41,840 nucleotides of DNA, from the UHGV virus genome UHGV-0211239, one strand, 5' to 3'. The stretch's first letter is position 1. Every line of letters begins with the position of its first letter. This stretch comes from a virus. The notes under the pieces are model-generated. The model had not been told where the DNA came from, ran no database searches, and worked only from the letters and a program-made list of their open reading frames with translations. A program made the position numbers and the translations under genes. This document shows, piece after piece, positions 6,368-11,469 of the stretch.

Positions 6368-7317
6368 TGCTCCGCGATTATCTTGATGGTTGTGGCAGTA
6401 AACGCCGCACCATTCGACTGAATGGTTAACGTACTGCCATTTGTGGCAAGAAATCCGTCTTTATCCACGCTGAAGAATGTAGCTAACAGGATGTTGTCGG
6501 TTGTTGTCGCCGCATTACGACTGCTGACCAGCGTATCAGGAACAGAGCCGGAAAAAGTTAGCTGCATTGACCTGTTGGCGGTTCCGCTGGGCCACGTCCC
6601 GACGATCGACAGCTTGAAGAACAAGGTTTTGTTCTCGTTGAACACAACCATCTTGTTGTTAACGGTGTCGAAGAATGGTGCCAACGTGCCGGATGACGGC
6701 GTGAGCGTTTTCAGCAGGCTAACAAGGTTGGTAGGCGCTGTCGGAATTGTTACCGATACCCCTGAGTAAACAACCTCTGATTTCTTGCGCGTGGTGGCAT
6801 ACTCAAGCGCAGATATTCTTGTTGAGTGATCACCAACTGTGCTTTGTAGCGTCGAAATACTTCCCTCTGCCGCTGTGAGCCTGGTATCAAGTGCGTCGAT
6901 ATCGGTTGTATTCTGAGTTATGCGCGCATCATGGTTTGCTAACTCAGATTCATTGGCAGCAATTCGCGTCTCGTGATCAGCCAGCTCTGTTTCAGCAGCC
7001 GTAATCCTTGTTTCATGATCTGCAAGAGTGCTTTCCGCTGCTGCAATTCTATGTTCATGATTGATGAGAGTTGCTTCAGCAGCTTCAATTCTGGATTCAT
7101 GGTCTGCAAGGGTGACATCCTGCTCATCGTTCCTGACCTGTGCATCATAAGCGCCCTGTCCGGCCTCGTTGGCTTTGTTAGCCACGTTACCAACATCAGT
7201 GCCCTGTGCGATAACGTAAAGCAGATACGACTGCGAGAAGATATTGCGTGGAAGGACTGATGTGTCGAGCCGTGTGGCCTGAATGATTACCGGAACATTG
7301 AGATTCGAATCCGCCAT
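6364..7317 (-). CDS. Tail needle (P22 gp26-like) with extended coiled coil and C-terminal knob domain
   Basis: 317 aa; N-terminus [43 protein letters not shown] matches gp26 N-terminal domain; heptad repeats (ADHETRI motif several times); about 130-aa C-terminal extension. Confidence 0.8.
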
Positions 7318-8735
7318 TACTCAATCCTTATCTGAGCGCCAGACAGAGTGACAGGTGACTTCGTGATAACGCGCAATTTGAAACCAATGTTTTTCCTGAT
7401 GCGCCCTACTTTCTTCCACAAAACGCGTTTGTCGTAAACGAACGGTTCATTCTGCTCAATCATCTGCTCACGACCGTAATTTATGCCGTCAGTGGTTGCA
7501 GAGAGAAAAAGGCGGTCAGCGTACTGAGCAACACCCGTCGATGATTCCACCTCCAGATCAAAGCATCTGGCGTTATCTGCTTTGAAGAGTGGAGTAAACA
7601 GCAGGTGTTCCTGCTGCTTGTCATACTGGCTGCTGATATCGAACTGCAATTTCCCGGTCACGGATTCCAGCTTATCGCCGCACGTTATCTGATTGCCTTC
7701 GTAAATGAAGTCGATAGCACGGTACACATCGTCATACAAGCCAGTTTTCAACACACACCATTGCGGACCATTGGCGCTTGAAGATGCGTCGTACACGAGA
7801 ACATGGCGCGGAAGGTGGATAATCAGCAACTCATGAGCATCAAATCGCAGCGATTCCATCACACCATCAGCCAGTTCATCAGCAGTGTAGGAGCGGAGGA
7901 TTTTCTCAATGCTCGCGCTGGCGATTGGTGACACCTGACCGGAGCCGATGATGTATACAGACGGCGCACCTGTTGCCGGATTGCTGATGAACGCATACGA
8001 GTCAGCGAATGGCGTTTTGCAGTAAGTCCCGGCGATGCCTTTTTGCACCATCAGTGATGGCTGTGCGACATACAAAGCTGCACCAACGGTGGTTGCACCA
8101 GTCAGGGAGAAATATTCAATCGTCGATGAACCAAAGCAGACGATGAAGTCTCGCCATGTGCCGATGCCGATGATGCCGTCCGGCTGCGATTCTGCGCGAT
8201 ATTGTGCGCTGTAGCGGTCAGGATGCGATTCGTCTTCAAGATCAGTGATAAACCATGAATCAGTTCCGTCTTTTGACCACGCATAACGCCCACGTAAGCG
8301 CGTAATATCGCGGACTGAGCCTAACTCATACTGAGTGAATCCGCTGTCTGTAGGCCAGTTTGAGACGGTTTTAACCGTGCCATCATAGCGATACTCGACC
8401 AGTTGACCATTAACGCCTACCGCCTGTGATGTCCTACCATGCGCCATTGATACGCGACCACTTCCGGAGACGTCACCGACTTCGCTTTCGCCTTTGTAAA
8501 GCTTCCCACCACACACGCGATAAACAGCACTCTGCGCCATGTTGTACTCGACGCCGCGAGATACACCGTTCACATCAGAGCGTTTGGCAATGCCAGGGAA
8601 TGAGCGAAGATATCCCGATGAATTCAACACCTCCTTGGGCGTAGCTAAAAGATTGACTGGAAGTTGGTCTATATAATCAGCATTAACCGCACTTTTCCCT
8701 AATCCCTTCATTAGTGGTAGTTGTTGTATTGCCAT
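7317..8735 (-). CDS. Tail accessory/head-completion protein, P22 gp10-like
   Basis: Start set to ATG at 8735 ([14 protein letters not shown]...); the track start at 8744 is TTG; stop overlaps gp26 start (TAATG). Confidence 0.85.
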
Positions 8736-9267
8736 TGGAATCAACCTTTATATGAACCCAGTTAGCATCACGCTTTAGCCTACTTGCCCAAGTCTTAGAT
8801 ATCCCGTACTTAGCCGCAATTACTGACAAGCTTTCTTTTGATGACTTGATTGCAAGAACATCGTCATCACTCAACTTGTGTTTTGGGTGCTTGGTTCCGA
8901 AAAACTTGATTGGTTTCTTTAATCCTGTGGCGTATGCATGTTTGATGTTTTCGCTTTGAGTGCACCACTCAAGATTATTGACGTTATTATTGAGTGGATT
9001 GCCATCAATATGATTTACCTGAGGCTTGTTTTCAGGATTTGGCAGGAATGTCATTGCAACGATTCGATGGGCAAAAGTCCATTTTGCTCCGATATTATAA
9101 AGCACCCTTCCCTGATTTATTTTAGGCTTTAACCAGCGCCCCTTTCTGAGTTGCGTGCTGCCATGCGCAGCCTTAACAACACGTGAGTGAGAATACACCC
9201 TGCCATCTTCTGTTACGGCATAAACACCTTCAAATCCAGGTATATCTTTAGCATTCTCAGAAAGCAT
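8683..9267 (-). CDS. HNH homing endonuclease (NUMOD4 - HNH - C-terminal HTH)
   Basis: 194 aa; GFEGVYAVTEDGRVYS (NUMOD4-like), HIDGNPLNNNVNNLEW...N (HNH), C-terminal DDDVLAIKSS..LSVIAAKYGISKTWASRLKR (HTH); SD aaggag; 3' end overlaps gp10 start in another frame. Confidence 0.8.
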   Translation of the reverse strand: MLSENAKDIPGFEGVYAVTEDGRVYSHSRVVKAAHGSTQLRKGRWLKPKINQGRVLYNIGAKWTFAHRIVAMTFLPNPENKPQVNHIDGNPLNNNVNNLEWCTQSENIKHAYATGLKKPIKFFGTKHPKHKLSDDDVLAIKSSKESLSVIAAKYGISKTWASRLKRDANWVHIKVDSNGNTTTTTNEGIREKCG

Positions 9268-9303
9268 ATCTACTCCTTAAAGTTTCGATTTTTCATGTAC
9301 TTA

Positions 9304-9408
9304 TTATATCAAAATTGCCAGCATATTCACTGGCAGATAGTCGATATAGTCAGCGTTTCGAAAGTCTTTGCCGACACCTTTCATAAGCGGAAGTTGCTGA
9401 ATCGGCAT
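9304..9408 (-). pseudogene. Duplicated 5' fragment of gene 10 (34 codons then stop)
   Basis: Translates [34 protein letters not shown], paralogous to the intact gp10 N-terminus; ATG abuts the gp4 stop as expected for the native gene 4-10 junction. Confidence 0.7.
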
Positions 9409-9909
9409 TTATTCGCTCCCGTTATCGCAAGGTTCCTTTCGGTGGAAGTAATTCCAACCGTTCCACTTCGCCAACTGATTACCGCTACCAACAGGCATAC
9501 GGTTTGGATAACCGGACTTACATTTAGCGGCTTTTGCTCTGTCCATTGCAGACAGTTTGACGAGTCGCTCTTTCCCGTATCTGGCAGTGGTTATAAGTTT
9601 TGCAGACGCTTCCAGCGCATAATCTGGAGCAATGCGGCAGGCAAGGTTGAAAATGACGGCATTGATAGCGTTATTTGACAAACCGTGCTCATCGCCAGGA
9701 TCCGGAGCGACATCTGCATCAGCGAAAATGTAGCCAACGTTGATACCAGGTGACGCATCACCGCCAAGCCATTCAGCCATCATCATTTCAAGGTCGTTGA
9801 CGCCGTCTTCCATAGACTGCGGTTCGACATCGGTTAACGTGGCATTTGATGCAACACCGAGCTTACGTAATGCTGCAAGGACTAAATCACCCTTCGTTGT
9901 CAGGTTCAT
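9409..9909 (-). CDS. Tail accessory/head-completion protein, P22 gp4-like
   Basis: Start re-set to internal ATG ([33 protein letters not shown]...) giving about 166 aa as in P22 gp4. Confidence 0.8.
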
Positions 9910-10129
9910 CTGCTGCCGCCTTAGGTTTTCGACCAGGCTTTTTACGCTGTTTTTCTTCTGGCTCTGGCTCTGGCTCTGACTCTGCAACATCCTTCAGAAG
10001 GTCATCGGGATGTGCAAACCAGCCAGCATCCAGATATTCCTGAAGCTCTTCGGCTTTCACGATTTCAAAGTCGTATCCAACGCCTTTCCACTTCTTCATG
10101 TCTCCATGACGAAAGATCATGTGTGTCAT
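9887..10129 (-). CDS. Small acidic hypothetical protein between coat and gene 4
   Basis: About 80 aa from ATG at 10129 ([14 protein letters not shown]...), SD ggaga; C-terminus has (EP)n encoded by a hexanucleotide repeat; overlaps gp4 start. Confidence 0.4.
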
Positions 10130-10144
10130 GCTTGTCTCCAGATA

Positions 10145-10166
10145 AAAAAGGGAGCCGAAGCTCCCT
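10145..10166 (-). terminator. Intrinsic terminator/attenuator after coat gene
   Basis: Minus-strand RNA gggagc-uucg-gcuccc followed by UUUUUU, directly after the coat stop. Confidence 0.6.
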
Positions 10167-10173
10167 CTGGTTA

Positions 10174-11469
10174 TCACGCGGTCTGGTTAGGCAGACCAAC
10201 ACCAATTGCCTCTGGTCGTACAGCACATGCTGAATACCACACAGCAATACGGCACTTACCAGACAGAGTATTGATATCACCCTGCGTTGCGAAGATGCCG
10301 TTAACACCAATACCAGGAATGCTGAAGGAAGACGTTTTCATGCCAGCAAACAGTTCATGGGTTACCGGGATCGGCTGAGACAGCAGACGGATTGAGTCAT
10401 CAGCCCAGAACACGTTAGCGGTGGTTGTTGCCACGTTCAGAACGTTTACCGTAGTGGCATCAGCAAGAGAGGTGTTTACGTTAGCGTAAGCCTTCTCTTC
10501 TTTTGTCAGTGACGCGTCATCCAGTGCAATCGGTTTCGGCGTGATTTCGATGTGAGTACCATCGATCACACGGGTGATTGAGAAAGTCGCATCATCAGTC
10601 AGCACGTTCTTCGCCATCTGAGACAGGAATTTCACACCAGTGAAGCTGATTTTGTCGCCGCGCTTAAATCCGGTGGTGGAGGATACGGTCACCGTTGCAA
10701 CACGGTTGTCGACGTTCTCTTTGTTACCATCGGTATCAAGGGTGTATGCCTGCGGCTTAAACTTCTGCGCACCAGAAACAGTTACACCAGTAGCGGTTGA
10801 CTTGGTAACTGCAGGAAGTTTCGGTGAGCGAAGAATTTCATCAAAGCCAGCAATCTGACGCTGAATAGTACCGTTGCGATAAGCTTCTTCAGGAACGCGC
10901 CCAAAGATGTCACCATCTACCAGGTTGCGGCCTGCTTTGCGGTAATCGTCAGGGTTCAGGAAGTAACTGATGCCCATGTCGCGGTTGAGTTCGCGGGAGA
11001 ACATCAGGCGCTCTGCATCAGACACAAAATCCCAGCCAGACAGGCCAGTAGATGGACCAATTGCGCGGGTATCGTGAACAACAAGCGAGCCCATTTCAGT
11101 TGCCTGTTTGGCAATCGCTGACTCAATGTTATTCGCCAGTTTTTTGGCGGATGCCTGGATGCGGCGACGGTAAGAACGCTCATCACGCAGGTCATCTGCA
11201 CGAAGCTCGAAGAAATCGTTATCCGGATCGCCCATGTTGCATTTCACGGACAGTTCCAGAATACCGGTAGCGTTGCCAGTTAAATCCCAGCCAGTCTGAG
11301 TTGGCGCTTCCTGCTCAACAGGCATCCACACGGTGTTGCTTGAACGTTGCATGGATTCTGCCGGAGGGGTGTATTTTGTCACTTTGGACGCCATTGGCGT
11401 CAGGTTCTGGACGGTTTCGATGATTTCATCCAGAGCATACGTGACCAGTTGACCTTCATTTAATGCCAT
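10174..11469 (-). CDS. Major capsid (coat) protein, P22 gp5-like
   Basis: 431 aa; collinear high similarity to P22 coat as recalled (MALNEGQ.VT...[14 protein letters not shown]...NRDMG.SYF.NP.DY.KAG...LSG.CRIA.WY...[13 protein letters not shown]). Confidence 0.95.

Follow-up and report, generated by a model that had tools for sequence, protein, structure and literature searches.

A probable HNH homing-endonuclease cassette bringing its own gene start into the 5' end of gene 10 of P22-like phages

The window analysed in this work, a stretch of 41,840 nucleotides (nt) of viral DNA (UHGV virus genome UHGV-0211239), comes from a temperate phage or prophage of Escherichia coli that is P22-like (Lederbergvirus-type) and mosaic. 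Its virion genes, including all genes of the locus described here, are encoded on the minus strand. At this locus gene 10 is interrupted close to its 5' end by a cassette of about 700 nt, which carries an intact gene for an HNH endonuclease followed by a second gene-10 start. The features found are listed below with their positions in the window.

8616-9315, minus strand: cassette of about 700 nt, comprising stop codons, a promoter-like motif, a leader, the HNH gene and replacement codons 1-40 of gene 10
8683-9267, minus strand: HNH gene, 194 codons, intact, with NUMOD4 and HNH_3 domains
9274-9280, minus strand: Shine-Dalgarno sequence TAAGGAG of the HNH gene, 6 nt ahead of its ATG, a strong ribosome-binding site as read from the sequence
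9303-9311, minus strand: extended -10 promoter-like motif TGATATAAT (predicted function), which at the same time closes the stub reading frame with TAA TAA
8616-8735, minus strand: cassette-borne replacement codons 1-40 of gene 10, in frame with the resident gene body
8745-8749, minus strand: weak Shine-Dalgarno sequence AAAGG of the replacement gene-10 start
9316-9408, minus strand: native gene-10 stub, codons 1-31 with the native ribosome-binding site and ATG (Pfam Phage_stabilise, E=7e-11)
9304-9408, minus strand: stub open reading frame (ORF) of 34 codons, made of 31 native gene-10 codons and then ILI and TAA TAA from the cassette
7317-8735, minus strand: full-length gene 10, 472 codons, with its ATG at 8735 and its end at 7317 (whole protein, Pfam Phage_stabilise, E=2.8e-297)
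7317-8615, minus strand: resident gene-10 body, nt 121-1419 of the gene, the proposed right homology arm
9409-9909, minus strand: gene 4 (head-tail adaptor; Pfam P22_Tail-4, E=1.7e-58), the upstream neighbour
9316-9335, minus strand: terminator-like hairpin TGCCAGTG-AATA-TGCTGGCA at the insertion point, formed by native codons 25-31 and followed by ATTTTG from the cassette

The junctions were set by aligning the window with the insert-free phages Louie, IME10, HZ41 and P22 and with about 20 IMG/VR contigs. The insert-free alleles read ...GTGAATATGCTGGC(T/A)|ACACCCAAAGAAATCCTCAACAGCAGC|GGATATCTTCGC..., and in the window native nt 1-93 are retained and followed by ATTTTGATATAATAA..., the HNH gene and the second gene-10 start. 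This second start diverges from the native sequence through nt 120, and the gene becomes ordinary again from GGATATCTTCGC (nt 121), with 114 of the 120 positions in nt 121-240 identical to Louie (95%). The insertion point lies inside gene 10, after codon 31 (nt 92/93); codons 1-31 are duplicated, while native codons 32-40 were replaced and are gone from the genome. The stop of gene 4 directly abuts the start of the stub (TAAATG). The gene-4 ORF as listed runs to 9990, and a P22-like start, MNLTTKGD, is found at 9909. The HNH gene begins 36 nt past the stub ORF, and its 3' end overlaps the 5' end of gene 10 by 53 nt. The GC content of the cassette is about 0.41, compared with about 0.50 in the flanks. 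Because the same arrangement recurs base for base in other phage, E. coli, IMG/VR and metagenome sequences, it is neither a chance layout nor an assembly artefact.

A preliminary description of this DNA had placed an HNH gene in the conserved junction between genes 4 and 10, at 8683-9408, and had read the arrangement as a homing-endonuclease invasion with target duplication and recoding. The 34-codon copy of the gene-10 start abutting the gene-4 stop was found as described (9304-9408, with its first 31 codons native), and the HNH gene is indeed intact and free-standing. Its position had to be corrected, since it interrupts gene 10 itself, and the element extends further, to 8616. The intact gene 10 does overlap the HNH 3' end, and the divergent 5' end covers codons 1-40 and was brought by the cassette instead of being recoded in place. 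Similarly, codons 1-31 are present twice, although not as a transposon-style duplication. With these corrections the homing-endonuclease interpretation was upheld by the distribution, the diversity and the intact nuclease.

The hairpin at 9316-9335 deserves a short comment. Its stem is native gene-10 sequence that is also present in insert-free alleles, and only its T-run comes from the cassette. It is poorly conserved among diverged cassette lineages and, for this reason, a role as a functional terminator was not built upon.

In order to know how frequent the insertion is, insert-free alleles were looked for, since their absence had been named beforehand as a result that would speak against homing. 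Among the 118 phage records matching the region, 116 lack the insert, and both carrier records correspond to a single phage, Salmonella phage UPF_BP1. A search of 5,426 complete E. coli genomes gave 907 with the junction, of which 889 are insert-free and 18 carry the cassette. Further carriers with an unchanged layout came from IMG/VR (28 contigs) and from metagenomes (8 contigs). Altogether, about 55 other sequences share the layout of the window, with junctions identical to the base. Presence/absence polymorphism at one fixed site among close relatives, as expected of a homing element, was therefore observed. Carriers were found in at least four gene-4/capsid backgrounds, with gp4 amino-acid identities to that of the window of 100%, 59% and 40%. 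In the RefSeq annotation, made by the Prokaryotic Genome Annotation Pipeline (PGAP), the stub appears as a gene-10 pseudogene 'missing C-terminus' beside an 'HNH endonuclease'. No prior description of the cassette, of the UPF_BP1 insert or of phage endonucleases with duplicated target-gene ends was found in the open-access literature.

The nucleotide diversity was computed among 38-39 carriers. The values were 0.003 for the spacer, 0.006 for both the HNH gene and the replacement start, 0.03-0.04 for the stub and 0.06 for gene 10 from nt 121. These steps are sharp, with the shift taking place within about 30 nt at either edge of the cassette. The gene-10 bodies of carriers are interleaved with those of non-carriers; they form no clade and are no closer to one another. 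The history of the cassette is decoupled from that of its flanks, and it has spread horizontally as a discrete unit across different backgrounds.

An illustration is UPF_BP1, whose cassette is 98.9% identical to that of the window and whose stub is 100% P22, the remaining gene 10 being of E. coli type with HK620 as its closest relative (95.5%). A P22 stub, a near-identical cassette and an E. coli-type gene 10 in the same phage indicate a crossover at the stub. The gene 10 of this phage (L001, 1018-2436) is itself a patchwork, in which a segment that is 100% P22 (nt 301-600) is flanked on both sides by sequence of E. coli type (nt 121-300 and 601-1419). Its RefSeq gp10 begins at an internal codon (1018-2328), so that the cassette-borne start was missed.

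The stub follows the resident background also in other carriers. That of the window is 97-99% identical to the insert-free alleles of Louie and IME10, and among carriers the stub presents 22 nucleotide variants, with almost all differences being synonymous. Since nearly all these variants encode the same peptide, the differences arose in functional genes prior to the arrival of the cassette. This points to repeated entry of the cassette into different gene-10 alleles.

The HNH protein gave Pfam matches to HNH_3 (E=1.9e-10, above the cut-off) and NUMOD4 (E=1.3e-8), and its sole solved relative by sequence was I-HmuI (1U3E; E=1e-8). It displays a NUMOD4 beta-domain, an HNH catalytic motif and a C-terminal helix-turn-helix. 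Residues N85, H86, N98, N107 and H110 are invariant in 48 homologues, and the catalytic residues align to the DH...N...N motif of I-HmuI. An AlphaFold2 model built with the 48 homologues reached a mean pLDDT of 88 and showed strands at residues 16-65 and three C-terminal helices at 134-165. When this model was compared with the PDB using Foldseek, 1U3E was the sole match with E<0.001 (probability 1.00), with 196 aligned columns over the full length. Both the motif and the predicted fold are thus those of an I-HmuI-like HNH endonuclease. The last 18 or so residues are unconserved and predicted to be disordered; this tail is read-through of the ORF over the ribosome-binding site and start of gene 10. 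No close relative was found among GTDB species representatives, the best match having 49% identity.

A degenerate nuclease had been the second result named as unfavourable to homing. The HNH gene is intact in 38 of the 39 aligned copies. The exception is E. coli ES5 (L007, NZ_CP133871.1, 2584-3167), where a 1-nt deletion led to its annotation as two ORFs. Across residues 1-174, 12 synonymous and 5 non-synonymous polymorphic codons were counted (binomial P=1e-4 against a 3:1 neutral expectation), and the catalytic residues are invariant. This pattern indicates purifying selection on the HNH gene, and the nuclease appears to be functional. In addition to the aligned copies, one metagenome contig (L211, QZLW01004587.1, about 905-2854) contains an insertion of about 1.95 kb within the HNH gene. 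It encodes an IstA-like (340 amino acids) and an IstB-like (260 amino acids) protein, with 11 bp of the HNH gene repeated at both ends, and, going by its protein sequences, it is probably an insertion sequence (IS) of the IS21 family.

A search of a large protein database revealed more distant relatives of the HNH protein, with 83, 82, 72 and 69% identity, all of them encoded between gene 4 and gene 10. They belong to diverged lineages (L213-L219) that are only about 68-70% identical to known P22-like phages. The same layout was observed there: a native-type stub up to ...LPVNML (shortened in one case), a stop, TG(A/C)TATAAT, a leader, the HNH gene and a replacement start, which again overlaps the HNH 3' end. 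The HNH leader reads ...AATCGAAAC..GGAGTAGA(T/C)ATG in these lineages, and the leader of the window, AATCGAAAC..GGAGTAGATATG, is common to related HNH genes. The cassette layout is old, having been retained while the HNH genes diverged by up to 31%.

The alignment of the diverged lineages was also the only way in which a perfect extended -10 motif, TGnTATAAT, could be detected. Its distance to the downstream HNH ATG is 42-44 nt in each of the five lineages, despite differences in the surrounding spacer. The motif occurs twice in the whole window, both strands considered. It is probably the promoter of the cassette.

The origin of the replacement start was evaluated in several ways. Compared with the native start, 74 of 120 nt are identical (62%); at the codon level, 10 codons are identical, 22 are different but synonymous and 8 carry amino-acid changes. 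The longest run shared with the stub is 5 nt. The GC content at third codon positions is 0.35 for the replacement start, similar to the 0.39 of the HNH gene, and 0.57 for native gene 10. Around codons 29-30 all native and stub copies read AAT ATG CT(G/T), and all cassette copies read AAT (CTT/CTG/TGC) TTA. Over the first 90 nt, the cassette-borne starts of the five lineages have a mean identity of 68% among themselves, the stubs and native alleles 74% among themselves, and the two groups only 59% to each other. Between the window and L213 the replacement starts are 84% identical and the HNH genes 81%.

A donor was also looked for. A degenerate DNA pattern for part of the replacement peptide, searched against IMG/VR and metagenomes, matched cassette carriers only, namely 27 IMG/VR sequences plus L204, where the HNH gene is present, and 8 of 8 metagenome sequences; no replacement-type start without an HNH gene was found in these two collections. 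A donor phage with a gene 10 wholly of the 'recoded' type was not found by tblastn of the 40 residues against 50,697 phage records, the nearest native allele being 80-84% identical. The 40-residue peptide retrieved only two fragments from an index of 5.8 billion proteins, a search for which this query is too short.

Given that the cassette copies cluster together and that the donor searches found none, the replacement start is concluded to be a long-standing passenger of the cassette. Three other origins were rejected. A recent import from an identifiable donor does not agree with the empty donor searches, and recoding in place does not agree with the grouping of the replacement start with cassette copies of other lineages and not with native alleles. 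A transposon-style target duplication was discarded as well; the recoded start travels with the cassette and is a gene-10 homologue with a long history of co-evolution.

Starting from what was directly observed, that is, the anatomy, the presence/absence polymorphism, the movement as a unit, the purifying selection and the conserved layout in diverged lineages, the locus is probably occupied by a free-standing homing-endonuclease cassette of the I-HmuI type, which resides within the 5' portion of gene 10 in phages related to P22. We infer that its spread is driven by the nuclease rather than passive and that the stub has the role of a homology arm. In a mixed infection, or upon prophage induction alongside a related phage, the enzyme would nick or cut the insert-free gene 10 near codons 27-40. 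The break would then be repaired from the cassette-bearing genome, and everything between the homology arms would be copied in. Homology on the left would be provided by the 93-nt native stub, plus gene 4 where homologous, and on the right by nt 121 onwards of the gene-10 body. As the cassette supplies its own start in frame with the resident body, gp10 is still made. A native arm of 93 nt would allow entry into phages with an unrelated gene 4, which agrees with the observed distribution.

Carriers would be immune to their own enzyme, as the stub lacks the downstream half of the target and the cassette copy is changed. Carriers have lost native nt 93-120, and 46 of the 120 positions are altered in the cassette copy. 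Immunity is predicted because no intact native site is present in carriers, ATG-CTG at codons 29-30 having in every case become CTT-TTA or similar. Moreover, with a longest shared run of 5 nt, the two gene-10 starts have diverged too far for recombination between them to remove the element. The native terminal segment is kept as an unused remnant, a 93-nt stub closed by stops.

Several points weigh against this homing interpretation. The cleavage target was deduced solely from missing or changed bases. A generic sigma-70 scan, which requires a -35 element, found no promoter in 8400-9700, and it is the conserved TGnTATAAT by itself that argues for one. Loss of function is tolerated, given that one HNH copy is frameshifted and another contains an IS. 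Carriers are few (about 2% of the E. coli genomes with the junction and one distinct phage), fewer than an efficient homing element would lead one to expect, and, as the carrier counts draw on overlapping public data sets, the independent observations are fewer than 55. Finally, free recombination among P22-like phages together with a selective sweep could also spread the cassette and sharpen its edges.

One alternative is a single ancient HNH invasion, now passive, that has been shuffled by ordinary P22-like recombination. The high mosaicism of P22-like genomes, with gene-4 and capsid types switching right beside the cassette, the low carrier frequency (about 2%) and the existence of inactivated HNH copies would fit it. 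However, a passive old insert should match the diversity of its flanks, and that of the cassette is about 10-fold lower with sharp boundaries. The HNH ORF is under purifying selection, with 38 of 39 copies intact, and a useless 93-nt stub should have decayed, but nearly all of its changes are synonymous and correspond to functional alleles of the respective background. The layout is also preserved across lineages with HNH genes differing by up to 31%. A fossil insertion is consequently considered unlikely. A self-splicing intron or an intein in gene 10, with the stub as exon 1, could be suggested by the interruption within a coding sequence and by I-HmuI, the nearest solved relative, being intron-encoded. 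Against this, a search of 8300-9800 at E<=1 gave no match to any Rfam family, those of group I and II introns among them, the stub ORF is closed by two stop codons, the HNH gene is out of frame with gene 10, and the downstream gene has a complete start and N-terminus of its own, so that splicing would duplicate 31 residues. The Rfam result, the stops and the second complete N-terminus rule it out, its probability being practically nil.

The location in the head-gene cluster and the bare annotation 'HNH endonuclease' would also be compatible with a packaging-associated HNH protein of the HK97 gp74 type, which in cos phages like HK97 cooperates with terminase and portal. Such a protein should not be missing from about 98% of close relatives, including the viable P22, HK620 and Sf6, and this absence rules it out. 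Furthermore, P22-type phages package by headful, the gene lies between genes 4 and 10 and not beside terminase, and the NUMOD4, HNH_3 and helix-turn-helix set is that of I-HmuI; the packaging role is hardly credible. A different explanation is a weapon of competition or exclusion, in which cutting gene 10 of cassette-free relatives helps the carrier phage or lysogen and homing is a by-product. The target would be an essential head-completion gene, and the extended -10 motif conserved in five lineages would permit expression independent of the late operon. Precedents of nuclease-mediated exclusion among related phages are documented for intron and free-standing endonucleases (in passages of PMC11620839 and PMC2330249), as is the I-HmuI/I-HmuII competition (as cited in PMC12724721). 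On the other hand, the cassette promoter and the expression in a lysogen are putative, the low prevalence speaks against a strong advantage, and some E. coli carriers hold a second P22-like junction in the same genome. Exclusion as the main function is thus doubtful, although it overlaps with homing and is compatible with it, and the promoter motif makes it more plausible. With such a promoter, the homing nuclease might at the same time be a prophage-expressed exclusion weapon.

The element was compared with known systems. I-HmuI, the intron-encoded HNH nicking endonuclease of Bacillus phage SPO1 (1U3E), has the same domain order, fold and catalytic His/Asn residues. In contrast, the HNH gene of the window is free-standing, like many I-HmuI-like HNH genes of phages, its product is only about 24% identical to I-HmuI, and it ends in an unconserved 18-residue tail since the ORF overruns the gene-10 start. 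Among the T4-type free-standing homing endonucleases are the seg and mob genes (SegG, SegB, MobE), with mobE in nrdA of Aeh1 and mobA in T4 gene 39/60 (PMC2988022, PMC2790892, PMC2330249). Their presence at a fixed site likewise varies from one related phage to another, and some interrupt essential genes. They spread via break repair with co-conversion of the flanks, and the same is proposed for the cassette. The T4-type gene is intergenic or splits its host gene into two polypeptides that reassemble (PMC2988022), and in reviews of these elements (PMC2988022) no combination of replacement start and stub was found described. In the window, unlike the T4-type cases, the host protein stays in one piece via the replacement start and the native start persists as a stub.

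Some prophages and islands, such as e14 and phage 21 in icd, insert within a gene and rebuild its end from a diverged copy that they bring along. The likeness is that of a mobile element inside a gene, where a diverged duplicate of the displaced end keeps the gene functional. In that case an integrase acts by site-specific recombination at the 3' end of a bacterial gene; neither a homing nuclease nor the 5' end of a phage gene is involved.

A closer parallel is offered by the mORF gene hybrids of fungal mitochondria, described for atp6 of Allomyces macrogynus, atp6, atp9, cox2 and nad3 of Glomus, atp9 of Rhizopus and cox2 of Mortierella (PMC3630166). In these hybrids the incoming endonuclease ORF is accompanied by a foreign piece of the gene encoding the C-terminus, and the native piece is left as a remnant (PMC3630166). 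Both systems combine a nuclease ORF, a diverged foreign copy of a gene terminus fused in frame and an unused native remnant. Even the identity between the two gene ends is similar, 63.5% in Glomus atp6 (PMC3630166) and 62-64% in the window. The hybrids differ in that they involve the 3' end, LAGLIDADG or GIY-YIG nucleases and an organelle, whereas the cassette sits at the 5' end, encodes an HNH protein and lives in a phage or prophage. It must provide a translation start, and apparently a promoter too, where the hybrids provide a stop. In its arrangement the cassette works like an mORF hybrid, yet it is no member of that group. The replaced-gene-end layout had previously been described mainly in fungal mitochondria.

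On a wider scale, we tentatively suggest, as a reading that is by no means secured, that an old family of 'gene-start replacement' homing cassettes is resident in P22-like phages. In each of them a nuclease would be combined with a promoter of its own and with an immune version of codons 1-40 of an essential head gene, the displaced start being kept as a left arm that works across unrelated gene-4 types. If so, the mORF gene hybrids of mitochondria would have in these cassettes a first counterpart from phages, as a mirror image at the 5' end.

Homing endonucleases usually avoid harm to their host by residing in introns, inteins or intergenic gaps. Here, a free-standing nuclease inside an essential phage gene avoids the damage with a spare gene start that it brings along. 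There are also practical effects on annotation, as the gp10 start is miscalled or called at a TTG, the stub is flagged as a pseudogene and gp10 of UPF_BP1 is annotated in an N-terminally shortened form. In phylogenies, the first 120 nt of gene 10 of carriers differ in history from the remainder. The cassette is a compact element of natural origin that has apparently moved in recent times, and P22 and its relatives, in which it occurs, are the most tractable podovirus system. Homing and competition between phages through the nuclease could be directly measured there, and so could the length of co-conversion tracts and the minimal homology arms. The combination of a nuclease, an immune recoded target and short arms parallels engineered gene drives.

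Other HNH genes were detected in the head-gene cluster of P22-like phages. Two further classes, 55% and 43% identical to the HNH protein of the window, lie at the junction of genes 10 and 26 in other P22-like phages (L002, which is HZ41, 1595-2140; L008, 663-1196; L038, L040 and L041; L045-L056; L064-L068). They share a leader, AAATCGAAAC..AAGGAGTAGATATG, and the first 47 or so residues with the HNH genes of the 4/10 site, and no TGnTATAAT was found with them. They accompany a strongly diverged stretch covering the last 240 nt or so of gene 10 (55-72% identity). From the sequence this suggests a second type of cassette, which brings a replacement gene end without leaving a stub. The window has no HNH gene at this site, genes 10 and 26 abutting at 7317. 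Unrelated HNH genes are present elsewhere, in Louie beside the major head gene (L003, 4562-4825) and in SEN22 between terminase and portal (PMC5261728). The head-gene cluster of P22-like phages is a general hotspot for HNH elements.

Two minor observations were made in the surroundings of the locus. In Salmonella phage SEN22 (L016, about 2001-2121) a 1-nt insertion breaks the gene-10 frame at about codon 17, with no HNH gene there; the record starts gene 10 further downstream, and either a sequencing error or a damaged gene could account for it. In the window, a hexanucleotide repeat, (GGCTCT)n, is found at about 9950-9985. It encodes EPEPEP in a small ORF (9887-10177, minus strand) between the coat gene and gene 4, and SQSQSQ in the upstream extension of the gene-4 ORF, and its copy number is polymorphic, HZ41 having one extra unit.

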